Positions 14,867-36,452 of a stretch of DNA of 64,000 nucleotides are shown here, piece by piece. The position numbers and the translations under genes were made by a program. The stretch's first letter is position 1, and each line of letters begins with the position of its first letter. Source of the DNA: Eubacterium sp. (GTDB lineage Bacteria; Bacillota; Clostridia; Christensenellales; CAG-314); contig CAVJWC010000004.1 in the NCBI GenBank assembly GCA_963653425.1, positions 21,244 to 85,243 on the forward strand, read 5' to 3'. The notes beneath the pieces are model-generated. The model was not told where the DNA came from, did no database searches, and saw only the letters and a program-made list of their open reading frames with translations.

Positions 14867-14875
14867 GGGATTATT

Positions 14876-16980: not shown

Positions 16981-17063
16981 GTATTTGTATAATGGGTGTT
17001 TGTTTCGTTCTCTCCGTGCAATTATCCGTTTACAACACCAACCCACTGAGGAGGAAAAACAAG

Positions 17064-20000
17064 ATGCAAAGAAAAAGCTTGATAGCTGTTTTGCTTGTCG
17101 CAATGGTATTACTGCTCATATCGTGCAGTTCGCTTCAACTTGACAAGCCGAACGTTATCGATTCAAGTAACACAACAGCCCGCTTCTCTCGGTCTTTACT
17201 GAAAGCGGCGCAGTTCCTTAACGGCGGAACTTCCGAAACCGAATCGGATTCTTCCACCCTCCCCGCTAAAGACGACGAAGTTTACGTTACCGTAAAACTC
17301 GGTAGCGGTATCGTTGATTCTTACTTCGGTAGCGGATTTACGAGCGTTGCGGACTACGCACTTTCCAAAGAAGGCGAAGCCATGATCAGCGACTTTACCG
17401 CTCAGCAGGACTCGGTTATAGCTTTAATGAGAGACAAGAAGCTTACCACCGAAATCAAGCATCGTTACAACATTCTCCAGAACGGTTTCGCAGCTAAAAT
17501 CAAATTCGGCGACATCGAAACCGTAAAGGCTCTTCCGGGCGTAAAACAGGTCGTTCTCGCAGAAGAGTACTCCATTCCGGAAGTTTCTTCAAAAGCTTTG
17601 GCTGCTTCCTTTGCAGACACGGGTATTTTCAATAACCCCACGAATTACGCAGGAGCAGGAACGGTTATAGCTATTCTGGATACCGGTATTTATGCGGACC
17701 ATAGCGCATTTGCTACCGCTCCTTCCGTCGAAGCCATTAACTACGAATACGTAGAGAAAATACTTTCCGTAACCAATGCCGGCGCAGTAGGCGCAACGGC
17801 AGAAACAGCTTATTACAGCGCAAAAATCCCCTTCGCATTCAACTATGCGGACGGTAACGAAAGATTCCAGCCCGGTTATTCCGACATGAGCGTAGGTCAC
17901 GAACACGGCACTCACGTTGCGGGTATCGCGGCAGGTAACGACGACACTATAAAGGGTGCTGCCTGGGACGCTCAGCTCGCGGTTATGAGAGTATTCGGCG
18001 CAGGCAAGCAGGGCGCTAACGATACCGACATCTACGCGGCTGTAGAAGACTGCGTGATTCTCGGCGTTCAGGTTGCTAACCTTTCGCTCGGCAGTACGTG
18101 CGGTTTTGCTTACGAAAAGGCAGAACAGAATCAGTTCGTAAACGACATCGTTAACCTTGCAAGAAAAGCAGGTCTCACTATGTGTTGCGCAACGGGTAAC
18201 GTAGGTACGGCTTGGTGGGATTCGGATACTTTGGCTCCGTTCTCCGCCGTTGACGATCCCGATAACGGCACGGTAAGTTCGCCCGCTTCTTTCCCCAGCA
18301 CGTTTGCAGTAGGTTCCGCAAACAACCTCGTGAAGATTTACGTAAACTTCGAAGGTTCGAGAATAATCGGCAGAAACGGCGTTGTAGACTCCGAAACGAG
18401 CAAGGAAATCAACTTCTTCGCTATTCTTGACGGCAAAGACGAAGCGACCTTCGAATACGTTGCAGTTCCCGGCGCGGGCGCACCCGAAGATTACGACGGA
18501 CTTGACGTTACGGGTAAGATCGCTCTCGTTCAGAGAGGAGAAATCTCCTTTGCCGAAAAGGTTCAGAACGCAAAGGATAAAGGCGCGATAGCTTGTATTC
18601 TTTACGATAACGTAACCGAAAAGATTGAAAAATTCGGCGCGGTCGTAGGCGAAAACACTATTCCCACCATGACAATTACTCTTGAAGACGGCACCACGCT
18701 TGCCAATGCTCAGGACAAACGTATCACGATCGGCTCTTCCGACTATTTCGTGGAATACTCGTATTTCTCTTCGATGGGCGCTCTTAACGACCTTTCCATC
18801 GGCGTAGACATTCTCGGTATAGGCGCTGGCGTTTACTCCGCGGTTCCTCAGTACTATGACTGGCAGTTCGGAACAAACGGTTACACCTACATGGACGGTA
18901 CTTCCATGGCAACCCCCAACGTCGCAGGCGTTATGGCGGCTCTTAAAGGATACCTCAAACAGGCTTATCCCACCAAGACTCCTGCCGAAATCTCCAATCT
19001 CGCTATGCAACGTCTTATGAGCACGGCTACTATTCTCGAAAACTCCGACGGCAACCCCATCACCCCCAGAAGACAGGGTTCGGGTCTTGCAGACATCGAA
19101 AGAGCCATTGAAACCGACGCTTACATAACGGTAACCGGTTCGGACAGAACCAAACTCAACCTCGGTAGCGACACCGAAAAAGACGGTATTTATACGCTTA
19201 ACTTCAACGTTGTGAACGACGGCGAAAACGCTCTCGGTTATAAACTTAACGTACTTACCTTCACCGAATCCGCAGTAACCGGTAAATCCATAAACTACAC
19301 CTTAAAGGGCGCGGATAAACTCATGATTGCCGAAAAAGCTTATATGCTTGACGGCGCAGAAGTTAAGTATTACGTGAACGGCACGCTTCTCGAAGGCGAC
19401 GAAATCACCGTGGAAGCAGGCGAAAAACTCAAGATCAAAGCCGTTATCACTCTTACGGAAGAAAACAAAGCTTACATGAACGAAACCTTCCCCAACGGTA
19501 TTTACGTTGAAGGCTTTGCGGTTCTCGAAAGCACGGACGAAGAAGGCATCGACCTTCACATTCCGTACATATCTTTCTACGGCGATTGGATGACTCTTCC
19601 CGCATACGAACCCACGGCTTCCGACGGCACGGCTTCGACTTTCGGAAAATACTTCGGTCTTACGTTTATGTCCTATGAAGACGCAGGCAACGGCTGGTTC
19701 GTCGGACAGGAAATTCAGGCAGGCGTATATTCTTACACTCTTCCCGAAGGATACAAAGCTCCTACGGCTAATGCAGACAAAGCCGCTATCGGCAGAGGCG
19801 TTGACGACAACGGTTCTTTGGACGGAACGGTAATACTTAAAGCTATTAACCTTGCTATTAAGCGTAACGCTTCCTCGGTTTATCTCAGTTATACGAAGGT
19901 CGGCACCGGTGAAAGTCTCGGCAACGACGTTTTCTATAACATCGGTAAGGCTTGCGCAGGCACTAACGGCGGATATTCGCTCACTTTTAACGAATTCTAT

Positions 20001-23000
20001 CCCGAAACGCTGATGCTCGCAAACAACGAACAGCTTCTTTTCAGCTTTACCTACGACTTTAACGATAAGCCCGTCGGTCAGGTTGTTGATATGCCCGTAT
20101 TTATCGACCTCGAAGCTCCCACCCTTGAAAAAGCTTCCTGGAGAACGGAAGACGGCAGAACTTACCTCGACCTTACCGTTTACGACAACCATTACCTTCA
20201 GGCAACCGGTCTTCTTACCTACGGAACGGAAGACAGCTATAACAGCCTTTACAAATTCATGTTCCCGTGTTACGGCGACGTAAGAAACGGAGATTACTCC
20301 TACTCGATAGACGTTACCGATTATATGGCTAACGTTGTAAACGACACCTTTGCGGTTCAGCTCGTTGACTATGCAAGAAACGTTTCCGTTTACGAAATCG
20401 AACTTCCCGATAGCGGTGAAAACAACGCAAACGCTGTTATTACAGGCAACGAAAACCGTACTCTTGCGGTAAGATACCGTACCGACGACGCCGTAATTTA
20501 CTACGACGTAAACGATCCTTCCTATACGGAAGTTCACACTTACAGCAGTTTTGACAGCTCCAAGGCAAACAATGCCGTCGTTAACTCCGAAAGCGAAGGA
20601 ACGGACGAATTCGTTATCGAAAACGGCGTTCTTAAAGCTTACAACGGCGAAGGCGGAGAAGTTGTAATTCCCGACGGAGTTACCTCTATAGGCGCATACG
20701 TTTTCAACGGCGACAGCAGAATCACAAAACTCGTTCTTCCCGAAGGTCTTAAATCGATAGGTTATTATTCTATCAGAAATCTTTATCACCTCACCGAGAT
20801 CGTTCTTCCCAAGTCGCTCGAAAGAATGGAATATTATTCCTTCTGTACTCTTCCCTTGCTGACTTCTCTCGATCTTGAAAATACCAGCCTTAACTACGCG
20901 GCTTTCGCACTCAACGGTATAGCCGGCGTTAAGACTCTTACCTTCCCCAAGACGGAAACTCCGCTTACTCTTAACTTCACCTTGGACGTATGTTATAACC
21001 TCGAAAAGGTTACTTTCCTCGGCGACGTGGCGTCTATACATTCAAGCTTTATGTTCAACGATTCTCTTAAAGAAATCGAATTCATGGGCAACGTTACCTC
21101 TCTCGAAGGCGTAAGAGCAGGTATGGCTTTGTCGTTAACCGGTTGCGACGTTCTCGAAAGAATAGTATTCCACGGCAACGTAGACAAACTCGGCTACTGC
21201 ATAGTTCAGGATTACGGCGACTACGTTTACAAAGATTACAGTCAGGCAGCGTCCGCTCTTATCGGTCTTAAAGAAGTTATCTTCGAAAAAGACGTAGGAA
21301 GTATCGACGGTATATCCTTCTCCGGTTGCCCGAAACTTGAAAACGTAGCTTTCGGCGGAAACGTCGGCTACATAGGTAGCGGAGCATTCGGTGGAAGCGA
21401 CATGCTTTACGGCGGTTTCACCGTACTTGAAGGCAACGACAAGCTTATTAAAGACGAAACGGGTATCGTTTACAACGCAGACAAGACCGCTATGTTCAAG
21501 CCTTCGGCTTGGGATTACGACGGCGTACTCGAACTGCCCGAAACCATTACCGAACTTAACGAAAGAGAATTCTCCATTCCCGAATTCGTTCCCGAATACG
21601 TTAAACAGGATTACGGTATCTATCCCGAAGGAGAAAACGGCGGCGGTTATTACTGGAACCTCAACTCTATGTTCGGAAATCCCGACTACGACAAGACCCT
21701 CCTTAAAGGCGTTAAACTCGGAAGTCAGATAAAGACTTTACCCGCATATTGCTTCTACAGAAACTACAACCTTGCGGAAATCAACCTCGAAAACGTCGAA
21801 GTATTCAAAACGCAGTCCCTTTCGGGAACGGCTATAACAAGCTTCAGAACAACCGAAAACACCAAGAAGATCGGCGCGGGCGTTTGGAAAGGTTGCCGTA
21901 ACCTCACCGAAATCGTTATAGGCGAAAACGTTGAAGTGGAAACCTACGAAGAATTCTATTCCGGCACAGGTTTCGTTGAAATCGAAGTTCCCGAATATAT
22001 CACCGCAGACGCGGCTTACCTGTTCGCAGCCTGCAAGAACCTCGAAAAGGTAACCTTCCTTAATACCGGTTCTCAGAATATAGGTTCGGGCGCTTTCAGC
22101 GGTACGACTTCTCTTAAAGAAATCATAGGTATCGACAACGTAACCGCTATCGGCGAGTACGCATTCAATCTTTCGGGTATCACTCACCTCGAACTCGAAA
22201 ACGTAAAGAGTATATCCGGTCCTGCGTTCTACCATGCGGAGAAGATCGAATCCGTTTACTTCCCTGCTCTCGAAACCGTTGAACCGATATACGATTGGGA
22301 CGGCGAACTCTACAACGCGTTTGCATACTGCACGTCGCTTAAATCCTTCTACATCGGCGAAAACTGCGGTTACTTCAATCCTGTAGGAATGTTCGAAGGT
22401 TGCGACGCTCTCGAAGAAATCGTCGTTCACGAGAACAACCGTGTATTCTCTTCTATAGAAGGCATACTCTTCAACAAGGCAGAAACGGCTATTCTTCTCT
22501 ATCCGACGGCAAGCACCGCAACCGAACTCGAACTGCCCGACACCATCAAGGCGATTAACGCAGGAACGTTTATGGGCGCGCCCAACCTCGAAAAAGTAGT
22601 TATGCCCGCGGTCGAAACCATCGGCGCAAACGCATTCGCTTACTCGGCGGTTAAGGAAGTTGTCGTAAGCGACGCTCTCGTCGAAATCGGCTTAGGCGCG
22701 TTCAGAAATACCGCTATAAGCGAGTTTGATCTTTCCGACGTACTCGTTATCGACGACGACGCTTTCTATGCGACCAAGCTCACCGAAGTTACCGTAAACA
22801 AAGCGGAATACCTCGGAAACAAAGCTTTCGGCGCAATTGAAACGCTCGAAAAGGTAACTATCGGCGGAGTAGATGAATTCAACTTCTCCAGAGTATTCTT
22901 CGGTTCCACCAACATCTCTTCCGTTGAACTTAACGGCTGTGAAGTTCTCACCGAATTCGAAGACGGACTCTATAACGCAGACAAGACCGTTCTCTACAGA

Positions 23001-23354
23001 TACTTCGGAACGGAAGCAAACGTAACTCTTCCCGAAGGAATCGTTAAGATCGATTCTCACGCATTTGCAGGCAACACGACCGTTAAGAACGTAGTTCTTC
23101 CCGCAAGTCTCGGATATATCGCTGACGGCGCGTTCTACGGATGTACTGCTCTTACCGAAATCACCTTCAAATCCGAAAAAGCACCCGTTCTTCAGAACTA
23201 TTACAGAGACGGCGTAAGATACCTCTATAACCAGTTTGTAAACGATCTCGAAGAAGCTGACGGAAACGAAGACGTTAAGATTTACGTAAGCGGTGACGCA
23301 TCTTACAACACCTACATCTGGAGAACTTACTTCAAAAACATAATCGTAAAATAA
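17064..23354 (+). CDS. Giant S8 protease / BspA-type LRR lipoprotein, copy 2 (~2,096 aa)
   Basis: ATG 17064 with GAGGAGG upstream. It has the same lipobox N-terminus and the motifs AILDTGI, HGTHVAG and GTSMATP. It is collinear with copy 1 but diverges mainly in the catalytic-domain loops and the central LRRs. Confidence 0.85.
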   Translation: MQRKSLIAVLLVAMVLLLISCSSLQLDKPNVIDSSNTTARFSRSLLKAAQFLNGGTSETESDSSTLPAKDDEVYVTVKLGSGIVDSYFGSGFTSVADYALSKEGEAMISDFTAQQDSVIALMRDKKLTTEIKHRYNILQNGFAAKIKFGDIETVKALPGVKQVVLAEEYSIPEVSSKALAASFADTGIFNNPTNYAGAGTVIAILDTGIYADHSAFATAPSVEAINYEYVEKILSVTNAGAVGATAETAYYSAKIPFAFNYADGNERFQPGYSDMSVGHEHGTHVAGIAAGNDDTIKGAAWDAQLAVMRVFGAGKQGANDTDIYAAVEDCVILGVQVANLSLGSTCGFAYEKAEQNQFVNDIVNLARKAGLTMCCATGNVGTAWWDSDTLAPFSAVDDPDNGTVSSPASFPSTFAVGSANNLVKIYVNFEGSRIIGRNGVVDSETSKEINFFAILDGKDEATFEYVAVPGAGAPEDYDGLDVTGKIALVQRGEISFAEKVQNAKDKGAIACILYDNVTEKIEKFGAVVGENTIPTMTITLEDGTTLANAQDKRITIGSSDYFVEYSYFSSMGALNDLSIGVDILGIGAGVYSAVPQYYDWQFGTNGYTYMDGTSMATPNVAGVMAALKGYLKQAYPTKTPAEISNLAMQRLMSTATILENSDGNPITPRRQGSGLADIERAIETDAYITVTGSDRTKLNLGSDTEKDGIYTLNFNVVNDGENALGYKLNVLTFTESAVTGKSINYTLKGADKLMIAEKAYMLDGAEVKYYVNGTLLEGDEITVEAGEKLKIKAVITLTEENKAYMNETFPNGIYVEGFAVLESTDEEGIDLHIPYISFYGDWMTLPAYEPTASDGTASTFGKYFGLTFMSYEDAGNGWFVGQEIQAGVYSYTLPEGYKAPTANADKAAIGRGVDDNGSLDGTVILKAINLAIKRNASSVYLSYTKVGTGESLGNDVFYNIGKACAGTNGGYSLTFNEFYPETLMLANNEQLLFSFTYDFNDKPVGQVVDMPVFIDLEAPTLEKASWRTEDGRTYLDLTVYDNHYLQATGLLTYGTEDSYNSLYKFMFPCYGDVRNGDYSYSIDVTDYMANVVNDTFAVQLVDYARNVSVYEIELPDSGENNANAVITGNENRTLAVRYRTDDAVIYYDVNDPSYTEVHTYSSFDSSKANNAVVNSESEGTDEFVIENGVLKAYNGEGGEVVIPDGVTSIGAYVFNGDSRITKLVLPEGLKSIGYYSIRNLYHLTEIVLPKSLERMEYYSFCTLPLLTSLDLENTSLNYAAFALNGIAGVKTLTFPKTETPLTLNFTLDVCYNLEKVTFLGDVASIHSSFMFNDSLKEIEFMGNVTSLEGVRAGMALSLTGCDVLERIVFHGNVDKLGYCIVQDYGDYVYKDYSQAASALIGLKEVIFEKDVGSIDGISFSGCPKLENVAFGGNVGYIGSGAFGGSDMLYGGFTVLEGNDKLIKDETGIVYNADKTAMFKPSAWDYDGVLELPETITELNEREFSIPEFVPEYVKQDYGIYPEGENGGGYYWNLNSMFGNPDYDKTLLKGVKLGSQIKTLPAYCFYRNYNLAEINLENVEVFKTQSLSGTAITSFRTTENTKKIGAGVWKGCRNLTEIVIGENVEVETYEEFYSGTGFVEIEVPEYITADAAYLFAACKNLEKVTFLNTGSQNIGSGAFSGTTSLKEIIGIDNVTAIGEYAFNLSGITHLELENVKSISGPAFYHAEKIESVYFPALETVEPIYDWDGELYNAFAYCTSLKSFYIGENCGYFNPVGMFEGCDALEEIVVHENNRVFSSIEGILFNKAETAILLYPTASTATELELPDTIKAINAGTFMGAPNLEKVVMPAVETIGANAFAYSAVKEVVVSDALVEIGLGAFRNTAISEFDLSDVLVIDDDAFYATKLTEVTVNKAEYLGNKAFGAIETLEKVTIGGVDEFNFSRVFFGSTNISSVELNGCEVLTEFEDGLYNADKTVLYRYFGTEANVTLPEGIVKIDSHAFAGNTTVKNVVLPASLGYIADGAFYGCTALTEITFKSEKAPVLQNYYRDGVRYLYNQFVNDLEEADGNEDVKIYVSGDASYNTYIWRTYFKNIIVK

Positions 23355-23683: not shown

Positions 23684-23712
23684 TTGACAAAAAAGAAAAA
23701 CCGTGATAAAAT
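23684..23712 (+). promoter_or_regulatory. Promoter of the TM1266-family gene
   Basis: TTGACA, 17-bp spacer, TGaTAAAAT (extended -10). Confidence 0.55.
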
Positions 23713-23732
23713 ACAGTTAATCGGAGGCGAAT

Positions 23733-23990
23733 ATGGAATACAGAGTTGCGGTAATCAGCATTATCGTGGAAAAAAACGAAAAAGTGGAGGTTCTTAACGA
23801 GCTTCTGCACGAATACGGGGATTATATCCTCGGCAGAATGGGTATTCCGTACAGAAAACGCGGTATCAACATAATAAGTATCGCTCTCGACGCACCGCAG
23901 GACGTTATAAATTCTCTCGCCGGCAAAATCGGCAGAATAGAGGGTATAACCACAAAAACCGCCTATTCGGGAAGCGTTTATTCCGACTGA
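23733..23990 (+). CDS. TM1266-family putative [FeFe]-hydrogenase-system regulator (small ACT/NikR-C-like protein, 85 aa)
   Basis: Its size and the sequence VAVISIIVEKNEKVEVLNELLHEYGDYILGRMGIPYRKRGINIISIALDAP... are typical of the family found next to hydE/F/G. Confidence 0.7.
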   Translation: MEYRVAVISIIVEKNEKVEVLNELLHEYGDYILGRMGIPYRKRGINIISIALDAPQDVINSLAGKIGRIEGITTKTAYSGSVYSD

Positions 23991-24000
23991 CGATAACGGG

Positions 24001-24065
24001 TTAAAACGGAATTGCTCGTAGATTAAAACGGAATCGCTCGCAGATTAAAACGACGTCGGTCGTCC
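24001..24065. repeat. 22-bp tandem repeat x3 (ttaaaacggaattgctcgtaga)
   Basis: Units start at 24001, 24023 and 24045. Confidence 0.6.
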
Positions 24066-24254
24066 TTCCGAACGAAACCCGACGGAAACCGACAAAAAAT
24101 CCGTTAAAATCGATTCAAACCTACAGAAATCGATTGAAATTGAATAGAAATCGGTTAAAACCGACAAAAAACGACGAATAATAAAAAATCGAATCCCTGA
24201 CGCCGAAATTGCGATTGAGGCGAAAGATAAGGTTCGTGTGAGTGAGTTTGCTTT

Positions 24255-24288
24255 ACCGCACGCCTTTTTCGGGGGGTGCGGTTTTTTC
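24255..24288 (+). terminator. Terminator/attenuator hairpin immediately upstream of the ABC permease RBS
   Basis: accgcac...gtgcggt stem followed by TTTTTT, ending 3 nt before GGAGAA (24291-24296). Confidence 0.5.
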
Positions 24289-24299
24289 GTGGAGAAACA

Positions 24300-25298
24300 A
24301 TGAAAACAGGCTTTTCGACTAAAATCAATTATCCGCTGATTATCGGGCTTATACTTTTCCCCGTGGTAAGTATTCTCGTGTGCTTCTGTATAGGCAGGTA
24401 TTCCGTGTCCGTGGTGGAAATGCTGAGTTGGATTTTCGGCGGAAAGATAGATTCCGTCACGGCTTCGGTACTTTCGCAGAGATTGCCGAGAATTCTCACC
24501 GCGGCTCTCGTGGGCGGAGGACTTTCCGTTGCGGGTTGCGTACTGCAAAGCACCTTTTCCAATCCTCTGGCAACGCCCGACACGTTGGGTGTGGCTTCGG
24601 GCGCGAGTTTCGGCGCGGCTCTTTCCATTTTACTCGGCTTTTCGCTTATAGGAAGTCAGATTCTGGCTTTCGTTTTCGGCGTGGGGGCTTTGCTTCTCAC
24701 TATGCTTGCGGGAAAACGCCGTAGCGGAACGACTTCCATGATTCTTGCGGGCGTAATGATGGGTTCGCTCTTTTCGTCGCTGGTTTCGCTCGTGAAATAT
24801 CTTGCCGACACGGAATCCCAGCTTCCGTCGATAACCTACTGGCTTATGGGAAGTCTGAGCGGAGCGGGCAAAAAAACGCTGATTTTCGGCGCGCCCGTGA
24901 TAATTATCGGCATACTCGTGCTTTTCGTAATGAGAAGGAAACTCAACCTTCTGCCTCTTTCCGAAGACGAAGCCACTTCTCTCGGAACGGATATAAAGAA
25001 ACTGAGAATTACCGCTCTTACCGCGTCGGCGGCAATTACCGCTTCGTCGGTGGCTATGTGCGGTCCCGTGGGCTGGGTAGGGCTTCTCGTTCCTCACGTT
25101 TCGAAAATGCTTTTCGGGAACAATCATAAGATAACCGTTCCCGCTTCGATAAGTTTCGGTTCGGCTTTTCTTGTGGCGGTGGATACGCTTGCACGGTCGG
25201 TTACCGCTTCGGAAATCCCCATATCCGTATTGACGTCGGTTATCGGCGCGCCCTTTTTTATCTATATCCTCAGAAGAAAGGGAGGAAGCGGTTTATGA
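24300..25298 (+). CDS. FecCD/BtuC-type ABC permease (iron-chelate/cobalamin-type importer)
   Basis: A ~330-aa polytopic protein with ...LTAALVGGGLSVAGCVLQSTFSNPLATPDTLGVASGASFGAA... and ...SVLTSVIGAPFFIYIL. The start is taken at ATG 24300. Confidence 0.85.
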   Translation: MKTGFSTKINYPLIIGLILFPVVSILVCFCIGRYSVSVVEMLSWIFGGKIDSVTASVLSQRLPRILTAALVGGGLSVAGCVLQSTFSNPLATPDTLGVASGASFGAALSILLGFSLIGSQILAFVFGVGALLLTMLAGKRRSGTTSMILAGVMMGSLFSSLVSLVKYLADTESQLPSITYWLMGSLSGAGKKTLIFGAPVIIIGILVLFVMRRKLNLLPLSEDEATSLGTDIKKLRITALTASAAITASSVAMCGPVGWVGLLVPHVSKMLFGNNHKITVPASISFGSAFLVAVDTLARSVTASEIPISVLTSVIGAPFFIYILRRKGGSGL

Positions 25299-26347
25299 TT
25301 TTTCAGGTAAAAAACGGCTGTTTCCGCTATAATAAAAAAGAAGACGACGTGCTTTCAGACGTGAATTTCGACGTTAAAAGCGGAGAAATACTTGCCGTTC
25401 TCGGTCCCAACGGAGCGGGTAAGACTACGCTTTTAAGGTGCGCTCTGGGTTTTTTGAAGTTTGACAGGGGCGAAGCTTTGTTTGACGGAAAGAACGTGCG
25501 CTCGTATAGTCCGAGCGAACTTTGGAGGAAAGTGGCTTACGTTCCTCAGGCAAGGCAGACCATATCGCCCTATACGGTGGAAGAAACGGTACTTCTCGGA
25601 AGAAGCAGTTACGGCGATATACTCGGCAGAATTACCGCGGAAGACTATAAAGCAGCGGACGAAGTCATAGAAAAACTCAATTTAGAGCGCATACGGCATA
25701 AAAATTGCAGTGAAATAAGCGGAGGAGAACTTCAGATGGTTCTGATTGCCCGCGCGCTTGCCGTTTTCCCCGAACTTCTCGTACTCGACGAACCCGAATC
25801 CAACCTCGACTTCCGCAATCAGCTTCTCGTTCTCGATACGCTGACGAGACTTGCAAAAAACGGTACGGGTATAATTCTCAACACTCACTATCCCGCGCAC
25901 GCCCTCAGACGGGCGGATAAGGCTCTTATGCTGGGGAAGGACGGAAGTTCGGAATTCGGAAGAACGCAGGAAGTCGTGACGAGCGAAAATATCGGCAGGT
26001 TTTTCGGAGTGAACGCGGTTATAGGCGAAATCGAAACCGACACCAACCATTATATCGACGTTATTCCCGTGGACTTCGATTTGCCCAAGGAAAACACCGA
26101 CGATTCCGAAGTTATAGCTACCTTGTCGGTGATTATGAAAGACAATTCCGTAGCTCAGGAAGTCAACGCCGTTATCCACAAAGCCTTTCCCTTCGTTCTC
26201 GGAAGAATGGGAATGCCCGTAAGGGACGAAGGCTTATATATAATCAATCTCGTGCTTAAAGCTTCCCCGCGCGAAATCCGAGCCGTTTTAAGAGAACTTA
26301 ACGAAAAATCGGGCGTGAGCGTCAAAGCCGTTTTCGAAAGGAGATGA
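25295..26347 (+). CDS. ABC transporter ATP-binding protein (FepC/BtuD-like) fused to a C-terminal TM1266-like domain
   Basis: Walker A GPNGAGKTT, signature SGGELQ, Walker B LLVLDEP. The extra C-terminal ~85 aa (VIATLSVIMKDNSVAQEVNAVIHKAFPFVLGRMGMPVRDEGLYIINLVLKASP...) align with the stand-alone TM1266 protein. Confidence 0.85.
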   Translation: MIFQVKNGCFRYNKKEDDVLSDVNFDVKSGEILAVLGPNGAGKTTLLRCALGFLKFDRGEALFDGKNVRSYSPSELWRKVAYVPQARQTISPYTVEETVLLGRSSYGDILGRITAEDYKAADEVIEKLNLERIRHKNCSEISGGELQMVLIARALAVFPELLVLDEPESNLDFRNQLLVLDTLTRLAKNGTGIILNTHYPAHALRRADKALMLGKDGSSEFGRTQEVVTSENIGRFFGVNAVIGEIETDTNHYIDVIPVDFDLPKENTDDSEVIATLSVIMKDNSVAQEVNAVIHKAFPFVLGRMGMPVRDEGLYIINLVLKASPREIRAVLRELNEKSGVSVKAVFERR

Positions 26348-26351
26348 ACTT

Positions 26352-27404
26352 ATGGTCAGGGATTTAATAGTAAAGCTTAAAGAAAACCGCAGTCTTTCTC
26401 ATTCCGAATGGGTTGAGGTTTTAAGTCGTTACACGGACGAAGACAGAGTTTTTGCCGAAAACGAAGCAAGAAATCTTACCGAAAGAATATTCGGCAGAAA
26501 GATTTTCTTCCGAGGAATAATCGAATTCACCAATTACTGCAAAAACGACTGCTACTACTGCGGAATAAGACGTTCCGACTTAAACGCCGTTCGCTACAGG
26601 CTTTCAAAGGAAGAAATTCTCGAATGCGCCCGAGAAGGCTACGCTTTGGGATACAGAACTTTCGTCCTTCAGGGCGGAGAAGACGCGTTTTTCACCGACG
26701 AAAGACTGATCGATATTATAAAAGCCATAAAGGCGGAATTCCCCGAATGCGCGATTACTTTATCCGTAGGCGAGCGCGACAGAGCTTCCTACGAAAAGCT
26801 GTTCGAAGCGGGCGCGGACAGATACCTTCTTCGTCACGAAACGGCAGACTGCAAGCTTTATAGTAAGCTTCACCCAAAGGAACTTTCACTCGAAAACAGA
26901 ATGAGATGTTTAAGAGACCTTAAAGAAATCGGTTTCCAGACGGGCGCGGGAATGATGATAGGCGCGCCTTATCAGACGGCGGAAGAACTTGCGGAAGACA
27001 TGGAATTTTTGTCCGAATTTAAGCCTCAGATGGTGGGTATAGGTCCGTTTATCCCCCATAAAGACACGCCCTTTTGCGGTTTTCCGTCGGGTAACGAAAA
27101 TCTGACTCTCTTTTGCCTGAGTCTCGTTCGGCTTATGCTTCCCTGTTCGCTTTTGCCCGCGACTACCGCGCTCGGAACGGTTGACGGACGGGGCAGACAA
27201 AAGGGCGTTCTTGCGGGCTGCAACGTCGTTATGCCCAATCTTTCGCCTTTGTCCGTCAGAAAAAAGTACCTTTTATACGACGGAAAGGCAGGAACCGACA
27301 GCGACGCCGAAGAAGGTCTTAAAGTCCTCAGAAAACAGATGGAAGAAATCGGCTACGAGGTCGTAACGGGCAGAGGAGACTATAAACGGGAGGAGAATTT
27401 ATGA
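26352..27404 (+). CDS. hydE: [FeFe]-hydrogenase H-cluster radical-SAM maturase HydE
   Basis: [19 protein letters not shown] (CX3CX2C), [19 protein letters not shown], and [14 protein letters not shown]...LPATTALGT all closely recall the T. maritima HydE sequence as I remember it. Confidence 0.85.
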
Positions 27405-28165
27405 TAAGAATCGCGATTTACGGCAAAGGCGGAATAGGAAAATCCACGACGGTTTCCAATATTTCCGCGGCTCTTTCCGAAAAAGGGCTTAAAGTAATGC
27501 AGATAGGGTGCGATCCCAAAGCAGATTCCACGGTGAACCTTCTTCACGGTGAAAAAATCAATACCGCGCTCGATCTTATACGGGAAAAAGGCAACGATTT
27601 TGTGCTTTCCGATATGGTAAAAATCGGATTCGGAGGAGTGGTTTGCGCCGAAGCGGGCGGTCCCGTCCCCGGTCAGGGTTGTGCGGGAAGAGGTATTATA
27701 GCGGCACTTGAAAAGCTCGAAGAAAAAGGTGCGTACGAAGTCTATAAGCCCGACGTGGTTTTTTACGACGTTTTAGGCGACGTCGTGTGCGGAGGTTTTG
27801 CCATGCCCATGAGAGCAGGTTACGCGCAAAAGGTCTTTATTATAACTTCGGGCGAAAATATGGCTATCCACGCCGGTGCAAATATCGCCGTCGCCTTAGA
27901 TAACTTCAAAGGCAGAGGTTACGCCACGCTCGGAGGAATTATCCTTAACAGAAGGAACGTCCGTAACGAAGAAGAAAAGGTTGCGGAGCTTTGCGACGAC
28001 ATTCATTCGTCGATAACGGGAAGTCTTTCGTTCAGTCCCGTGGTTCAGGAAGCGGACGAGAAGAAGAAGACGGTTATCGAAGCTTTCCCGGACAGCGAAA
28101 TGGCGGAAGAATACAGAAAGCTTGCCGTAAGCGTGATAAAAGCCTGCGGAGGAGATATATGCTGA
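27401..28165 (+). CDS. NifH/BchL-family ATPase (nitrogenase iron-protein-like, short form, 254 aa)
   Basis: [15 protein letters not shown]-loop, [12 protein letters not shown], and both cluster Cys ([18 protein letters not shown]). Confidence 0.85.
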
Positions 28166-29472
28166 AAAGATTGGGCGAAAGCGCGGATATAAAGCCCGTT
28201 AAGATTTCCGAAGCCTCTTTTCCGTCGCCCTTTTCCTCGGGTCTCGAATATTCGGCGCCCGCGAGAGGCGTTTTCAACATAGTCCACACGGGTATGCTTA
28301 TACCCGAAATTCACGAAATTTTCGTGTGCGCGCAGGGTTGTCTCAGAGGAGTGGTTTTAACCGCTGCGGAAATGGGTGCGCAGGAGAGATTCTCTACAGT
28401 TACCGTCAAGGAAAACAACCTTCTTGAAGGCGATATGGAAAGCCTTATAATAGAAGGCGTTTCGGATATTCTTTCAAGGCTCGGTTCGGTTCCGCCCGCC
28501 GTTCTCGTATATACGAGTTGCATCCATCATTTTACGGGGTGTGACCTTAACTACTGCTACGCCGAGCTGAGAAAGAGATTCCCGTCGGTTGAGTTTACCG
28601 ACTGTTATATGAACCCCATTATGCGTAAAAGCGGACTTACGCCCGATCAGATTATGCGCAAACAGCTTTACAGCCTGTTAACGCCAATGAGTTCCGACGG
28701 CGGAATAAATATCATCGGGAACAACTATTCAACGGACGACGAAAGCGACATAGTAAAGCTTATATTAAAGTCGGGAAGGAAACTCAGAGAAGTCACGAGA
28801 TGCAGTAGCTACTCGGAATACAAAGAAATGGCTATGTCTGCGCTTAACGTGAGCTACAACCCGTCGGCTCGCGCTGGCGGAGAAGCTCTCGGAAAAAGGC
28901 TTAACCGAAAACACCTGTTTTTGCCTATGAGCTTCTCGGAAGACAAGATAATCCGTAATATGACCTTGCTTTCAAACGAACTCAACGTAAGTTACGACTG
29001 CGAAGAAGATAAAGAACGCGCCGTAGAAGCCATTAAAAAAGCCCGTAAAGCGGTTGGCGACCGTCCCGTCGCCGTGGACTATACGGCTGTCATTGCGCCA
29101 CTCAGCCTCATAAAACTGCTCGTAGAATTCGGTTTCAACGTCAAAAGGTTTTATACCGATTCTTTTATGCCTATGGAAAGAGAAGAATTCGACTATCTTA
29201 AAGAGAATCTTCCGAATCTTGAAATTCTGCCGACCGTCCGTCCCGAAATGGGAGTAGCAGGCAGGAATCAACCCGAATTCCTTTGCGTGGGACAGAAATC
29301 CGCCTATTTTACGGGTACGAAAAACTTCGTGAATATCGTCGAAGGCGCGGGTTTATACGGGTTTTACGGCATAAGGAGAATTGCTGAACTCATAGAAGAA
29401 GCGAATGCCACGGAAAAAGAAGCGCGCGACTGCATTCAGCAAAAAGGTTGGGGGTGCAACTGCTGTTTATGA
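28159..29472 (+). CDS. Nitrogenase component-1-type (NifD/NifE/BchN-like) protein, 437 aa
   Basis: ATG 28159 overlaps the upstream stop. It has Cys at 57/61/121 and a family-like strand [13 protein letters not shown]...[10 protein letters not shown]. The tail is Cys-rich (GWGCNCCL). Confidence 0.65.
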
Positions 29473-30584
29473 AACAAACTCAGAAGATAATTTCCACTTA
29501 CACGGCGGACGTTTCGGGCGTATGCTCGGCGCTATACGAACTCGAAGGAATGACGGTTATACACGACGCGTCGGGCTGTAATTCCACCTATAACACTCAC
29601 GACGAACCTCGTTGGTACGACAGTCCGAGTCTCGTTTTCATATCGGGACTTACCGAAACCGAGGCTATTATGGGGGACGACGAGAAACTCGTCCGCGACA
29701 TAACCGAAACCGCAAAGGAATTAAAACCGCGTTTTATAGCCATAGCGGGTTCGCCCGTTCCTATGATGACGGGGTGCGACATTCCTGCGATTGCGCGCGA
29801 AACGGAAGCCTTGACGGGCATTCCTTCCTTCGGTTTTCAGACGAGCGGAATGCATTCCTACGTTTCAGGCGCGGGAGAGGCGCTTGAGGCGTATATCGAT
29901 CGTTTCGCGGAACGAAAAGAGAAGAAGAAAAGAAGCGCGAATATCTTAGGCGTAACGCCCGTGGATTTTTCGGTTAACGGGCAGAACGAGAGTATGAAAA
30001 CCTTTCTTATCGAAAACGGATGGGAGGTTATAAGTACGGTAGCTCAGGGAAGTTCACGGCAGGAAATCGCTCTTACGGCTCAGGCGGAAGTCAACCTCGT
30101 CGTCTCTTCCGTAGGACTTAAAACCGCCCGCCTTCTTTATAAGAAGTTCGGAACGCCCTACGTCATAGGTACGCCCTACGGAAAAGAATTCGGAAATCGT
30201 CTCGTTCGTATGATGGAAAAATCCTCGGAAACGGGAGAAAACGCAGTGGGGTTCGGTGACTTTGCGGGTTTCGGCGACGTCTTTATTATAGGCGAATGCG
30301 TAACTTCCCGTTCTTTGGCTATGGCTATAAACATTAAATACGGCAAAGAAGTCCGCGTTATCTGTCCGCTTGAAATGAGCGAAGGACTGCTTTCTACTGG
30401 CGACTACGCTTTATCGGAAGAAGAGGACGTCGAAAACGCGCTTAAAAACGCTTCCGCCGTTATAGCCGATCCGCTTTATAAGCCCATAGTTCCCAAGTCC
30501 GCGAAGTTTTTCGCTCTTCCGCACGAAGGCTTTTCGGGCAGACTTTACAGAAAGAACATTCCCGACCTTATAAAAGGAATATAG
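29469..30584 (+). CDS. Nitrogenase component-1-type (NifK/NifN/BchB-like) protein, 371 aa
   Basis: ATGA overlap with the upstream gene. Motifs include YTADVSGVCSAL, IHDASGCNS, LTETEAIMGDDEKL and AIAGSPVPMMTGCD. Confidence 0.65.
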   Translation: MKQTQKIISTYTADVSGVCSALYELEGMTVIHDASGCNSTYNTHDEPRWYDSPSLVFISGLTETEAIMGDDEKLVRDITETAKELKPRFIAIAGSPVPMMTGCDIPAIARETEALTGIPSFGFQTSGMHSYVSGAGEALEAYIDRFAERKEKKKRSANILGVTPVDFSVNGQNESMKTFLIENGWEVISTVAQGSSRQEIALTAQAEVNLVVSSVGLKTARLLYKKFGTPYVIGTPYGKEFGNRLVRMMEKSSETGENAVGFGDFAGFGDVFIIGECVTSRSLAMAINIKYGKEVRVICPLEMSEGLLSTGDYALSEEEDVENALKNASAVIADPLYKPIVPKSAKFFALPHEGFSGRLYRKNIPDLIKGI

Positions 30585-30753
30585 CGGAGTTCTTCCCTGC
30601 TTAATCGAAGGAATATAATCCTTTCGGTTTAGTCAAAGGAACGTAAAAACGCTTTGGTTTAATCGAGCGTACAAAACGAAGACGTTGACGTTACGAAAAA
30701 CGAAAAAGTAACGTTCGATAGGATATAAAAACCAATTGAAAAAGGAGAAAAAT

Positions 30754-31866
30754 ATGAAAAAAACAGTATTGATTTTACTGCTCGTGTGCCTTACGCTGAC
30801 GCTTTGCGCCTGCCCGTCGCCCGAGCCTCAACCCGACGCAGACACGATTACCGTGACCGACCACGCGGGAAACCAAGTTACTCTTCCCAAAGAAATCAAC
30901 AGAATAGTAGTCGCGGATATATTTCCGCTTCCGTCAATTCTCTCGGTGTTTTTCGGTTCCGCAAGCAAGCTTGTGGGCATAGCGCCTACAAGTATGGCTG
31001 CCGCTAAAAACAGCCTTCTTTCCGAGCTTTATCCCGAAATTCTGAACGCCGAAACGAGTTTTATGCAGGGCGCCGTCGTTAATGCGGAAGAACTCGCAAA
31101 ACTCAGACCCGACGTCGTTTTCGTAAGCACGGGAAGCGCGAAACAGGGCGAAACTTTAAGAAACGCAGGCTTTAACGTAGTGGAAATTTCCGCAAGCAAG
31201 TGGGAATACAACGCAATCGAAACGCTTAACGAGTGGATAAGTCTGCTTTCCGAAATCTTCCCCGCAAGTCAGGAAAGAGCTGAGCTTGCAAAGAAAGCCA
31301 GCCTCGAAGCTTACGACCTCGTAACAAAGAGAGTAAGTTCGCTTAAAACCGAAGAAAAGAAACGCGTGTTCTTTATGTTCCAGTACGGCAAAGACAACAT
31401 TCTGACTTCGGGCAAGAACTTCTTCGGTCAGTGGTGGGCGGAAGCTATGGGCGCGGTCAACGTTGCGGAAGAACTTACCAAAGATAATTCCGTAGCCGTA
31501 AATCTCGAACAGGTTATAGAATGGAATCCCGATATAATCTTCATTACCAACTTCACTACGGCTCAGCCCAAAGACCTTTACGAAAACACTATAGGCAACT
31601 ACGACTGGTCGGAAGTTTCGGCTGTCAAGAACAGAAAGGTATATAAAATGCCTCTCGGTATGTACAGAAGCTACACGCCCGGCATAGATACGCCCGTAAC
31701 TCTTCTCTGGTTTGCAAAGACGGCTTACCCCGAGCTTTTCGGCGACATAGACATAATTGATGAAGTTATAAGCTACTATAAGGACGTTTTCGGAGCGGAA
31801 CTCACTAAGGCTCAGGCTGAATCCATCTTTGCTCCCTCGGGAAACGCAGGAAAAATCGATTATTAG
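30754..31866 (+). CDS. ABC substrate-binding lipoprotein, FhuD/BtuF (chelate-binding) type
   Basis: MKKTVLILLLVCLTLTLCAC lipobox. ITVTDHAGNQVTLPKEINRIVV... is typical of cluster-A binding proteins. The start is ATG 30754, with AAGGAG at 30742-30747. Confidence 0.8.
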   Translation: MKKTVLILLLVCLTLTLCACPSPEPQPDADTITVTDHAGNQVTLPKEINRIVVADIFPLPSILSVFFGSASKLVGIAPTSMAAAKNSLLSELYPEILNAETSFMQGAVVNAEELAKLRPDVVFVSTGSAKQGETLRNAGFNVVEISASKWEYNAIETLNEWISLLSEIFPASQERAELAKKASLEAYDLVTKRVSSLKTEEKKRVFFMFQYGKDNILTSGKNFFGQWWAEAMGAVNVAEELTKDNSVAVNLEQVIEWNPDIIFITNFTTAQPKDLYENTIGNYDWSEVSAVKNRKVYKMPLGMYRSYTPGIDTPVTLLWFAKTAYPELFGDIDIIDEVISYYKDVFGAELTKAQAESIFAPSGNAGKIDY

Positions 31867-31876
31867 GAGATAAACT

Positions 31877-33079
31877 ATGGGACTTAACGATACGCCTTCT
31901 TCCGAAAGAGTGCATATAGGATTTTTCGGACTGAGAAACGCGGGAAAATCCAGTCTCGTCAACGCCGTTACGGGACAGAACCTTTCCCTCGTTTCCGAGA
32001 TAAAGGGAACGACTACCGATCCCGTTCAGAAAACCATGGAGCTTCTTCCCATTGGTCCCGTGGTAATCATAGATACCCCCGGCATTGACGACAGCGGTTC
32101 GTTGGGCGAAATGCGGGTTACCCGGGCAAGAAGAATGCTTGATAAAACCGATATAGCCGTTCTCGTAGTTGACGCCACTTTGGGACTTAACGGCGGAGAT
32201 AAGGAACTTATCGAACTGTTCACCGAAATGAAGATTCCTTATATCGTCGCTATGAATAAGTGCGACCTCCTCACTAAAATACCCGAAACCAAAGATAACG
32301 TTATCTACGTAAGCGCGGAAAAACGTCTGAACGTTTACGAGCTTAAAGAAATGATAGGCAGGCTTTCTGGAGTGCAGGATAAAGGCAAAAGGCTTATAGG
32401 CGACCTGATTTCAAAAAAAGACGTAATAATTCTCGTTACGCCCGTAGATTCGGCTGCTCCGAAGGCAAGACTTATTCTTCCTCAGCAGGAAACAATACGT
32501 GACATTCTCGATTCCGACGCGATAAACGTCGTGGTCAAAGAAACCGAACTTAAGGACGCTCTTGAACTTCTTAGCGGAAAAGTCAGAATGGTTGTTACCG
32601 ACTCTCAGGCTTTCGGAAAGGTCAGCAAAGAAACTCCCGAAGACATTCTGCTTACCTCCTTTTCCATACTGTTTGCCCGCTATAAAGGCGAACTCGACGA
32701 AGCTGTGAAGGGCGCGACTGCTCTTAAAACATTGAAGGACGGCGACAAAGTGCTTATCTCCGAAGGCTGTACTCACCACAGACAGTGCGGAGACATAGGC
32801 TCGGTGAAGCTTCCGAATTGGATAAGCGGTTTTACGGGCAGGAAACTTTCCTTCGATTTCACGTCGGGCGGAACTTTCCCCCAAGACCTTTCGGAATACG
32901 CTCTGGTCGTCCATTGCGGAGCGTGTATGCTCAACGAACGCGAAATGCATTCCCGCATAGAAAAGGCAAGAAACGCAGGCGTTCCCATAACCAATTACGG
33001 AATAGCCATAGCTATGATTCACGGCATATTGAAGCGTTCGCTTTCGCCCTTTCCCGAGCTTATAAAGAGGTATTTTTAA
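31877..33079 (+). CDS. hydF: [FeFe]-hydrogenase H-cluster maturation GTPase HydF
   Basis: G1 motif GLRNAGKSSL, G3 DTPGIDD, G4 NKCD, and C-terminal cluster motif EGCTHHRQC...VHCGACM. Confidence 0.85.
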   Translation: MGLNDTPSSERVHIGFFGLRNAGKSSLVNAVTGQNLSLVSEIKGTTTDPVQKTMELLPIGPVVIIDTPGIDDSGSLGEMRVTRARRMLDKTDIAVLVVDATLGLNGGDKELIELFTEMKIPYIVAMNKCDLLTKIPETKDNVIYVSAEKRLNVYELKEMIGRLSGVQDKGKRLIGDLISKKDVIILVTPVDSAAPKARLILPQQETIRDILDSDAINVVVKETELKDALELLSGKVRMVVTDSQAFGKVSKETPEDILLTSFSILFARYKGELDEAVKGATALKTLKDGDKVLISEGCTHHRQCGDIGSVKLPNWISGFTGRKLSFDFTSGGTFPQDLSEYALVVHCGACMLNEREMHSRIEKARNAGVPITNYGIAIAMIHGILKRSLSPFPELIKRYF

Positions 33080-33161
33080 CGGTAAAACTCAACGTACGGC
33101 GTTAGTGTGTTCTTGTTTCTGTCAAAAGGATAAAATTATAAACCGTAATGCCGAAACTTAA

Positions 33162-33187
33162 AGAGCAGTGCAAACTGCTCTTTTTTA
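33162..33187 (+). terminator. Intrinsic terminator after hydF
   Basis: agagcag-tgcaaa-ctgctct followed by TTTTTT. Confidence 0.8.
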
Positions 33188-33298
33188 TACGGATTTATAC
33201 AGAACGTTTGTGACTATATGGGAATGAGCTTTGCTTATAAGAAAGCTTTAACCGTTTGTCCGAAAGCCGACGACCGATTACGTTCGCGCGGTAAACGC

Positions 33299-33327
33299 TT
33301 GACAGTGGCGAAAAAGCGTACTATAAT
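33299..33327 (+). promoter_or_regulatory. Consensus sigma-70 promoter of the MATE gene
   Basis: TTGACA, 17-bp spacer, TATAAT. Confidence 0.6.
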
Positions 33328-36341: not shown

Positions 36342-36378
36342 ACACAGTCGCCTTCGTTTGAAAGCGACTGTGTTTTTT
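36342..36378. terminator. Bidirectional terminator hairpin
   Basis: acacagtcgc...gcgactgtgt (10-bp stem), flanked by an A-run and a T-run. Confidence 0.7.
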
Positions 36379-36452
36379 GGTACTCCCGACGGGAATCGAA
36401 CCCATAACTAACCCTTAGGAGGGGTTTATTATATCCATTTAACTACGGAAGC
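36378..36452 (-). tRNA. tRNA-Arg (anticodon CCT), CCA encoded
   Basis: The reverse complement GCTTCCGTAGTTAAATGGATATAATAAACCCCTCCTAAGGGTTAGTTATGGGTTCGATTCCCGTCGGGAGTACCA folds by hand into a cloverleaf. The anticodon loop is CTCCTAA and the T-loop is TTCGATT. Confidence 0.85.

Follow-up and report, generated by a model that had tools for sequence, protein, structure and literature searches.

A nitrogenase-like gene trio and an ABC importer share a putatively leader-controlled operon with hydE and hydF in Clostridia

The maturation of [FeFe]-hydrogenases is thought to need only HydE, HydF, and HydG. NifHEN-like genes of Firmicutes were noted by Dos Santos et al. (2012) to lie beside hydrogenase maturation genes, or beside ABC transporters, and that work gave one sentence to the same speculation that is developed here, with no survey, regulatory element, or analysis of HydE and HydF. 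A 2026 Chemical Reviews survey of nitrogenase-like (NFL) systems makes no mention of HydE, HydF, or TM1266, and states that gene context hinting at function is mostly lacking for uncharacterised NFL groups; apart from Dos Santos et al. (2012), our literature search returned nothing relevant joining the term "nitrogenase-like" with HydE/HydF or with HypF/HypD. Here we describe an operon in which a trio of NFL genes, encoding NifH-like, NifD/E-like (D-like), and NifK/N-like (K-like) proteins, is combined with hydE, hydF, and an ABC importer. It is found in a 64,000-nucleotide stretch of Eubacterium sp. (Christensenellales; assembly GCA_963653425.1, contig CAVJWC010000004.1, positions 21,244 to 85,243), referred to below as the window, which also matches the metagenome-assembled genome (MAG) assembly GCA_963637745.1. 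Judged by gene content and neighbourhood, the trio is a real and widespread NFL variant with a specific link to hydrogenase maturation, and we assign a probability of about 0.5 to the reading that it acts in the assembly of hydrogenase metallocentres, either as a scaffold or as a reductase driven by ATP, with the importer feeding it. New here are the synteny survey, the regulatory leader, the fusion of a TM1266-like domain to the importer ATPase, and the association with hyp genes; the initial annotation of this sequence knew of no characterised role for such a trio in H-cluster assembly, and the association of the trio with hyd genes was already noted by Dos Santos et al. (2012). The operon and its signals, in window coordinates, are as follows.

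23684–23712, + strand: sigma-70-type promoter-like site (TTGACA-17-TAAAAT with TG extension; 11/12 in a consensus scan)
23733–23990, + strand: TM1266-family small ACT-like protein of 85 amino acids (aa), putative regulator (TIGR03959, PF21699)
24189–24238, + strand: conserved leader hairpin (covariance model R1, 50 bits, E = 1.4e-9)
24255–24288, + strand: leader intrinsic terminator (CCGCACGCCUUUUUCGGGGGGUGCGG then U6; stem 24261–24278; from fold and terminator scan)
24301–25298, + strand: FecCD/BtuC-type (type II) ABC importer permease (PF01032, 288 bits)
25295–26347, + strand: ABC ATPase with C-terminal TM1266-like domain (ABC_tran, PF00005, 108 bits)
26352–27404, + strand: HydE, radical-SAM H-cluster maturase (TIGR03956)
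27401–28165, + strand: NifH-like ATPase, [4Fe-4S] reductase subunit (PF00142, 291 bits)
28159–29472, + strand: NifD/E-like subunit, 437 aa (PF00148, 52 bits, cut-off 28.6)
29469–30584, + strand: NifK/N-like subunit, 371 aa (PF00148, 103 bits, cut-off 28.6)
30754–31866, + strand: lipoprotein substrate-binding protein, class III Peripla_BP_2 (PF01497, 79 bits)
31877–33079, + strand: HydF, GTPase scaffold for the [2Fe] subcluster (TIGR03918; EGCTHH...HCGAC)
33160–33190, + strand: operon-ending intrinsic terminator (10-bp stem, then U-run)

As the initial annotation had it, nine co-directional open reading frames (ORFs) of the plus strand (23733–33079) run between a promoter-like site and a strong terminator, all coordinates being confirmed, and its description of tight junctions is correct at every overlap and gap: permease and ATPase overlap by 4 nucleotides (nt; 25295–25298), HydE and NifH-like by 4 nt (27401–27404), NifH-like and D-like by 7 nt (28159–28165), and D-like and K-like by 4 nt (29469–29472), with gaps of 4 nt between ATPase and HydE and of 10 nt between binding protein and HydF. 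The TM1266/permease junction is not tight, its 310-nt gap (23991–24300) holding the leader hairpin and intrinsic terminator, and 169 non-coding nt (30585–30753; 32–450 nt in relatives), in which no promoter-like or terminator-like site was called, separate the K-like gene from that of the binding protein. Database gene calls place the permease start at 24301 (332 aa) and the binding-protein start at 30754 (370 aa). The promoter-like site lies 20 nt 5' of the TM1266 ribosome-binding site, and the promoter of the next gene (33299–33327, consensus 12/12) lies 3' of the operon terminator, which folds at -18.3 kcal/mol (z = -5.85) and was visible from folding only, not being called by the pattern scan. 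Together they make up a single leader-controlled transcription unit, in which three modules are joined. The first comprises the organism's ordinary H-cluster maturases, HydE and HydF; the second, an ATP-dependent NFL two-component enzyme whose NifH-like dimer is predicted to hold a bridging [4Fe-4S] cluster; and the third, a type II ABC importer whose substrate is probably a small metal species, with a TM1266-like putative sensor domain on its ATPase.

Of 185,579 species genomes, at least 585 encode the D-like protein; its relatives number more than 2,351 at 90% clustering, and 245 representatives at E <= 1e-30 were recovered among 1.84 billion 50%-identity clusters. Synteny was surveyed in the best 80 of the at least 585 D-like loci, with shares counting only loci with enough flanking sequence. 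The TM1266 gene is a neighbour at 50 of 55 testable loci (91%), the binding-protein gene at 63/68 (93%), the ATPase gene at 48/55 (87%), hydE at 58/71 (82%), and hydF at 34/56 (61%). The commonest architecture is TM1266-(permease)-ATPase-HydE-H-D-K-SBP-HydF, where SBP is the substrate-binding protein, and this order, or close variants of it, spans Oscillospiraceae, Lachnospiraceae, Christensenellales, Clostridiaceae, Peptococcaceae, and a Synergistaceae MAG. Rearranged variants include HydE-H-D-K-SBP-ATPase-HydF-TM1266, TM1266-HydE-HydF-H-D, and TM1266-HydE-H-D-K-HydF. Many genera share this gene order, which speaks against a chance insertion, and the linkage of the cassette to hyd genes first proposed for the window alone is borne out by the neighbourhood survey. 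Clustering of flanking ORFs at the 80 loci returned only the nine families and antisense shadow ORFs, with no further conserved partner.

With a NifH-family subunit and two adjacent PF00148 subunits, the trio is an NFL two-component system. The NifH-like protein has the Walker A motif GKGGIGKST, its C94 and C130 align with C97 and C132 of A. vinelandii NifH, and C82, C94, and C130 are 100% conserved; its scores are below all curated subfamily cut-offs (nifH 320 against 394, CfbC 306 against 402, BchL 178 against 345, BchX 153 against 331). No NCBIfam model matches the D-like protein, and the best curated model for the K-like protein is nifE, at 68 against a cut-off of 505. Conservation in the D-like protein is 98–100% at C57, C61, C121, and C149 and 85–96% at C128, C215, C433, and C436, and its conserved histidines are H43, H52, H123, and H124. 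The sole invariant cysteine of the K-like protein, C37 within HDASGC, aligns with the HGxQGC cysteine of NifN/NifK (HGAQGC in NifN), while D-like C121 aligns with the NifE [4Fe-4S] ligand in YNTCVPALIGDD; the D-like protein has no C275 or H442 equivalent, the Cys275 position aligning to Asn/Ser. From this cysteine pattern, the D/K core probably holds a single inter-subunit [4Fe-4S] cluster (on D-C57/C61, D-C121, and K-C37) and no ligands for FeMo-co or an L-cluster. An AlphaFold model of the D-like protein (pLDDT 82, pTM 0.83) has the component-1 fold and matches NifK/N/D/E, Vnf/Anf, BchN/B, and MarD/K structures at TM 0.54–0.66, 10–16% identity, and probability 1.0; being roughly equidistant from the solved members, it points to a deep-branching clade.

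Two family assignments were tried for the trio and rejected. A true nitrogenase (NifDK, VnfDK, AnfDK) would have six P-cluster cysteines, not the three or four candidates in total seen here (D C57/C61/C121; K C37), Cys275 and His442 as ligands of FeMo-co are missing, and the nifD, nifK, and nifE models are far below their cut-offs. Membership of the CfbCD, DPOR, or COR families was dropped likewise, all curated CfbC/CfbD, BchL/N/B, and BchX cut-offs being missed, with methan_mark_13 at 28 against 268 and BchB at 46 against 490 in addition to the scores given above. Two further features of the family were observed: the D-like protein ends in a conserved GCxCCL tail (29455–29469, residues 433–437; C433 at 89%, C436 at 96%), and some D-like relatives (P0380, P0412, P0414, P0436) are fusions of 730–1,010 aa, apparently NifH-D or D-K.

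The family identities first assigned to the operon all hold under profile hidden Markov model search (TM1266, HydE, HydF, Fer4_NifH, Oxidored_nitro, FecCD, Peripla_BP_2), and HydE and HydF in particular pass curated cut-offs, with their motifs aligned to solved structures. HydE scores 538.4 bits on TIGR03956 (cut-off 254.6) over its full length (residues 6–344; model of 340 positions); its CX3CX2C motif, C63/C67/C70, aligns with CRKNCLYC of TmHydE, and T. maritima HydE structures are matched at 277 bits over residues 38–336. HydF reaches 554.9 bits on TIGR03918 (cut-off 325.55), contains the MMR_HSR1, HydF_dimer, and HydF_tetramer domains, and matches Thermotogae HydF structures at 346 bits, EGCTHH and HCGAC aligning with the CxH...HCxxC motif of 5LAD. 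Both proteins are about 50% identical to the Thermotoga enzymes and keep every universally conserved position. HydE and HydF from hydE-hydG-hydF operons are 54–65% identical to the NFL-linked ones, the same range as among the NFL-linked proteins themselves (median 61%). In the HydE alignment, no column is invariant in HydG-adjacent and Thermotoga sequences yet fixed differently in NFL-linked ones, and in a neighbour-joining tree the HydF sequences of both contexts interleave. By these comparisons, HydE and HydF here are orthodox, bona fide maturases. Neofunctionalised paralogues of either were rejected on present evidence, since the identity ranges overlap and no HydE column distinguishes the two sets. 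The TM1266-family protein scores 114 bits on TIGR03959 (cut-off 60.8) and 108 bits on PF21699 (cut-off 27), its sole solved relative being T. maritima TM1266 (2NZC, E = 4e-13).

These comparisons bear on a reversed dependency, in which HydE and HydF would build a special cofactor for D/K, standing in for the NifB-type maturase of Group IV systems. Such an arrangement would suit a locus in which no NifB homologue was found, a D-like protein with extra conserved residues (C149, H43, H52, H123, H124, and the C-terminal CxCC), and NFL-linked HydE that form their own neighbour-joining clade. Nonetheless, the close similarity of both maturases to those of Thermotoga, the lack of any HydE column that separates NFL-linked from canonical sequences, the interleaving of HydF, the many NFL loci without hydE, hydF, or both, and the need for the maturases in the organism's own hydrogenases together make it most improbable.

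Two [FeFe]-hydrogenase genes lie 7–11 kb upstream of the operon, and the organism thus needs HydE and HydF for hydrogenases of its own. They belong to a cluster at 10099–16303 that begins with a Rex-like regulator, an APH-like kinase, and two small 2Fe-2S thioredoxin-like genes and continues with the hydrogenase genes:

12028–13701, + strand: sensory-type [FeFe]-hydrogenase-like gene (Fe_hyd_lg_C, 159 bits)
13688–14866, + strand: PP2C phosphatase (SpoIIE, 52 bits)
14876–16303, + strand: 475-aa [FeFe]-hydrogenase (Fe_hyd_lg_C, 214 bits; CCP, PCxxKK, MACxxGC)

The nearest relative, L001, has about 240 nt upstream of TM1266 an ORF whose length matches that of the window's 475-aa hydrogenase and which shares its MACxxGC motif. 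Searches of the window ORFs confirmed that no HydG (TIGR03955-type, a radical-SAM protein of about 470 aa) is encoded in the 64 kb, as first reported, nor was one found in the reachable contig stretches beyond. The same holds for the operon and the flanking ±10 kb at all 80 loci, none of which has hydG; among radical-SAM ORFs with 300 aa or more, operon and flanks contain HydE alone. HydG itself occurs throughout these bacterial families, at more than 80% identity, and the loci sampled through it there (from assemblies that differ from those of all 80 NFL loci) show the arrangements TM1266-hydE-hydG-hydF, TM1266-hydE-hydG, TM1266-hydG-hydF, and solitary hydG. These appear to complement NFL operons that have hydE and hydF, just one of the two, or none, as would be expected if every maturase is single-copy in a genome.

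It is established that proteins of the nitrogenase family are able to reduce CO2 to CO. This chemistry would be available to a HydG-independent route, in which the trio and importer replace HydG and supply an Fe(CO)x(CN) unit or the CO/CN ligands; the trio does sit where hydG lies between hydE and hydF in leader- and TM1266-headed operons (L177, L210), and hydG is never within 10 kb in the 80 loci. Further in its favour, Di Leonardo et al. (2022) found no HydG with canonical motifs in five of eight acetogenic clostridia; C. ljungdahlii and C. ragsdalei, in which trios flanking hypFCDE were observed (see below), are members of this group. We nevertheless regard replacement as very unlikely, because a highly similar HydG is widespread in the same families, and solitary hydG, TM1266-hydG-hydF, and TM1266-hydE-hydG complement the NFL operons exactly; moreover, the operon shows no evident cyanide source, and the window is from a MAG, for which genome-wide absence of hydG is not demonstrable. 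The trio would then be an accessory to the canonical HydE/HydG/HydF pathway and not a replacement for HydG.

The importer would bring in a small metal species. Among NCBIfam models, the top matches of the permease (BtuC, FecC, FecD, FhuB) all stay under their cut-offs. The TM1266-like domain of the ATPase occupies residues 274–345 (nt 26114–26329; PF21699, 48 bits) and is fused in 49 of 64 cluster ATPases; this fusion suggests for the TM1266 fold the role of a small-molecule sensor, possibly used for trans-inhibition. The binding protein has a lipobox cysteine, Cys20, conserved at 98%, a mean column identity of 67%, and many invariant aromatic residues. Its model matches 4OVK (a Veillonella structural-genomics protein) at TM 0.79 and H. 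influenzae MolA (molybdate/tungstate) at TM 0.71, the further nearest structures being H. pylori CeuE (Ni-histidine), the Eubacterium eligens iron-ABC binding protein 4HN9, T. maritima TM0189, and YiuA. Since these nearest relatives handle molybdate, Ni-histidine, and Fe complexes, the imported substrate is, going by sequence and model, probably a metal oxyanion or a small metal complex. The initial description of a chelate-type ABC importer therefore stands for the FecCD, ABC, and Peripla_BP_2 families and not for the chelate, the nearest relatives binding small metal species and not large siderophores.

Upstream of most operons, the leader has the consensus CUGAC-NNN-GAAA-(loop)-UUGAG-N'N'N'-GAAAG-AUACGG, in which two tandem G.A/A.G internal loops flank a covarying stem; at related loci a terminator lies 20–90 nt 3' of the motif, with its 5' arm complementary to the 3' tail of the hairpin. 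An alignment of 32 sequences has 96% of its cells paired, with covariation at three pairs (AU/GC, UA/CG, AU/UA); none of 500 shuffles matched the observed score, slid controls pair at 26–49%, and the chance expectation of the pattern in the window is 0.00. The covariance model finds the leader in at least 43 of the best 80 loci, always at the head of the operon, including loci with no stand-alone TM1266 gene (L036, L078, L035). Rfam 15 returned no match at E <= 1 over 24189–24288 and none over the 310-nt gap, and for the leader regions of seven related loci none at gathering score; the leader hairpin with its terminator is new here and belongs to no Rfam family. Rex and Fur operators were seen upstream of TM1266 at only 2 of 48 and 4–5 of 48 loci, respectively, with no consistent site. 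Transcription from the promoter-like site would read through TM1266 and then be gated by the hairpin and terminator at 24189–24288, the signal being one that the RNA could sense directly or via TM1266; the leader could be a riboswitch or a TM1266 binding site. The spacer between TM1266 and the hairpin (23995–24190) holds direct repeats, GATTAAAACGGAAT[T/C]GCTCG[T/C]A, in two copies and a partial third, as well as several AAATCGATT/TAAAAC repeats.

A pattern scan of metagenomes recovered at least 120 leader loci. Good-scoring leaders with enough 3' sequence are nearly always followed by TM1266, which in a few loci precedes them instead, and low-scoring matches lacking TM1266 were judged to be chance. 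Among the matches listed, the commonest type in gut metagenomes, at about 63 loci, leads into an SsuA/SsuC-like NitT/TauT importer with no hyd or NFL genes, while about 12 lead into the FecCD-type importer known from the window, alone, about 12 into an NFL-type operon, and three into hydE and/or hydF with hydG. These three, headed by leader and TM1266, are L177 (hydE-hydG-hydF), L146 (hydE-hydG), and L149 (hydG-hydF), with HydG at 943 bits on TIGR03955. Where the importer is of the Ssu-like kind, an SsuA-like binding protein, an SsuC/SaoP-like permease, and an ATPase stand behind leader and TM1266 (e.g., L095, L102, L115, L117, L151). TM1266 thus heads importer-only and NFL-only operons as it does hydEGF operons, and the earlier description of it as a putative regulator that co-localises with hydEFG is too narrow. 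A strict pairing of leader and TM1266 was also considered; it is weakened by the leaders at loci with no stand-alone TM1266 and by operons found via HydG, of which some, TM1266-hydE-hydG among them, have no leader motif and one has a weak copy.

This mixing of cassettes raises the possibility that importer and NFL enzyme form an independent module that takes up and reductively processes, for general metabolism, either a metal complex or, in the manner of MarHDK and IsrHDK, an organosulfur compound, and that they share operon and leader with hydE and hydF solely through a common nutritional signal. Importer, NFL, and hydEGF cassettes do combine freely behind leader and TM1266, alongside the Ssu-like loci; the characterised Group IV systems, methylthio-alkane reductase (MAR) and isethionate reductase (ISR), are sulfur-salvage enzymes co-induced with Ssu-type transporters; and the TM1266-like domain of the ATPase seems to resemble the substrate-sensing trans-inhibition domains of other importers. 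However, hydE and hydF are not merely near the trio but interleaved with it through overlapping start and stop codons, an interleaving that survives rearrangement and spans families, the trio has a separate second linkage to hypFCDE, and no NifB, MarB, or IsrB homologue or sulfur-assimilation gene recurs in the flanks. Co-regulation of an otherwise independent module is hence possible but, on balance, rather unlikely.

The second linkage was seen in C. ljungdahlii ERI-2 (L049, 628–12408) and C. ragsdalei P11 (L046), where two NFL trios flank hypF-hypC-hypD-hypE: the window-type trio lies 0.8 kb downstream of the hyp genes, and a second, distant trio directly upstream, its K' gene overlapping hypF by 13 nt. 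Di Leonardo et al. (2022) report for these acetogens a group 1a [NiFe]-hydrogenase with HypCDEF but neither HypA nor HypB; the trios beside the hyp genes go unmentioned there. A 2025 review sees the most pressing open questions of [NiFe]-hydrogenase maturation in what supplies the CO ligand under anaerobic conditions and what donates electrons to HypD, and notes that reduction of CO2 to CO would need about -530 mV and ATP. It is conceivable, though doubtful, that the trio is an ATP-driven reductase of very low potential dedicated to the Fe-carbonyl/cyanide unit, serving HydE/HydF in most Clostridia and HypCDEF in acetogens, with the leader RNA and TM1266 sensing a shared precursor. The trio might then make CO from CO2 or a C1 donor, or supply electrons for ligand installation, on a route that either assists HydG or is independent of it.

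Under the broader reading, to which we gave about even odds above, the trio would work in the same process as HydE and HydF, either as a scaffold or as a low-potential reductase driven by ATP, and, with the importer feeding it, would prepare or deliver iron, an Fe-S unit, reducing power, or diatomic-ligand chemistry for the Fe-CO/CN centre. We favour this reading because gene order is conserved, rearranged variants keep the parts together, and leader and TM1266 also head hydE-hydG-hydF operons; because the ATPase carries a TM1266-like domain, the maturases are orthodox, and hydrogenases are present; and because a separate link to hypFCDE exists. In the terms of the initial annotation, the identities, the architecture, and a wide and stable hyd linkage are supported, whereas the descriptions of the importer substrate and of TM1266 have been corrected, and the association had an earlier notice. 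Several observations weigh against a role in metallocentre assembly. HydE, HydF, and HydG alone mature HydA in E. coli and in vitro (PMC9431212). Some NFL loci have no hydE, no hydF, or neither: Intestinibacter bartlettii has importer and trio without either maturase gene, and in a Clostridium sp. (GCA_001705235.1; L234, 7554–13421) the unit is leader-TM1266-NifH-D-K only. An importer alone, an NFL cassette alone, or an SsuA/SsuC-like importer can follow the leader, and such separable modules fit shared regulation as well as shared chemistry. The hyp linkage was seen in one lineage only, and in the neighbour-joining tree the four HydG-adjacent HydE sequences form one clade apart from the NFL-linked HydE (four sequences, without support values), so that separate paralogues within one genome are possible.

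PDDEXK_2 genes (transposase- or recombination-nuclease-like) lie on either side of the L234 unit, a hint that the cassette may be mobile. Elsewhere in the window, two very large plus-strand ORFs of near-equal length (1245–7634, 2,129 aa; 16971–23354, 2,127 aa) bracket the hydrogenase cluster and may encode paralogous surface proteases; in the second, a signal peptide is joined by subtilisin-like motifs (HGTHVAG, GTSMATP) and numerous repeats of leucine-rich type. Ordinary RNAs of the window comprise a tRNA-Arg(CCU) (36378–36452, - strand), a ribosomal protein L10 leader (50054–50171, + strand), and a large bacterial signal recognition particle RNA (58336–58600, - strand).

At least 585 gut, rumen, and environmental Clostridia species keep a costly NFL enzyme together with a metal importer, and in most of the loci examined these are inside a hydE–hydF operon. 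Should the trio join in maturation, the textbook pathway would be incomplete for much of the H2 metabolism of the gut microbiota, and a dedication to the Fe-carbonyl/cyanide unit, if true, would bear on where the CO ligand comes from when [NiFe]-hydrogenases mature anaerobically. For the nitrogenase field, the trio represents a clade that is large and branches deeply, whose ligand set is unusual and whose gene neighbourhood gives a clue to function, while the leader RNA and TM1266 offer an experimental handle on the signal that controls the whole regulon.

Among known systems, NifH/NifEN shares with the trio a NifH-type ATPase and a heterotetramer-type PF00148 pair set among cofactor maturases. 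NifE is the best sequence match in the Protein Data Bank of both the D-like and the K-like protein, and the single inter-subunit [4Fe-4S] site of NifEN is resembled, D-C121 corresponding to NifE C124 and K-C37 to NifN C44. The differences are that the trio shows 10–16% identity and TM 0.6–0.66 to solved members, with nifE at 68 against 505, that it has no L-cluster or FeMo-co ligands and no NifB, and that its partners are HydE, HydF, and an importer instead of nif genes. With CfbCD-type systems, the trio shares the plan of an ATP-driven NifH-like reductase and a simple [4Fe-4S] catalytic component with fewer than six Cys ligands, and the NifH-like protein scores nearly equally on the CfbC (306) and nifH (320) models; in contrast to those systems, the window locus has no tetrapyrrole-biosynthesis context, D/K is a heteromer whereas CfbD is a homomer, and scores fall below CfbC (402), methan_mark_13 (268), and BchL (345).

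MarBHDK and IsrBHDK likewise have an H-D-K layout in anaerobes, do not fix N2, are associated with ABC importers, and lack the FeMo-co histidine ligand. Unlike the window operon, however, they carry a NifB-like B gene and sulfur-assimilation genes, MarD and MarK structures are no closer to the D-like protein than NifDK or BchNB, and their importers are Ssu-type where the one here is FecCD-type; membership of a MAR/ISR-type Group IV was accordingly rejected, there being no adjacent NifB-like radical-SAM gene and no sulfur-metabolism context. The "red clade" of Dos Santos et al. (2012; Coprococcus catus, Dorea longicatena, Dhaf_1539/1540, Mlab_1040/1039) has two conserved cysteines in the D/E-like and one in the K/N-like protein, as here, and going by its description is probably the window family.

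For the leader, the likeness is to hutP-hut attenuation and transcriptional riboswitches, in which the 3' tail of a short hairpin can likewise pair with the 5' arm of a 3'-lying intrinsic terminator beside a small regulator gene, hutP-hut having the regulator gene first, then the terminator and then the structural genes; the window leader differs in matching no Rfam family and in occurring also at loci without a stand-alone TM1266. As to gene order, the nearest arrangement is the canonical TM1266-hydE-hydG-hydF operon of Clostridia and Thermotoga, which has the same TM1266 head, HydE and HydF orthologues at 54–65% identity, and sometimes the same leader, whereas the window operon has NifH-D-K and the binding-protein gene in the place of hydG and the permease and ATPase genes upstream of hydE.

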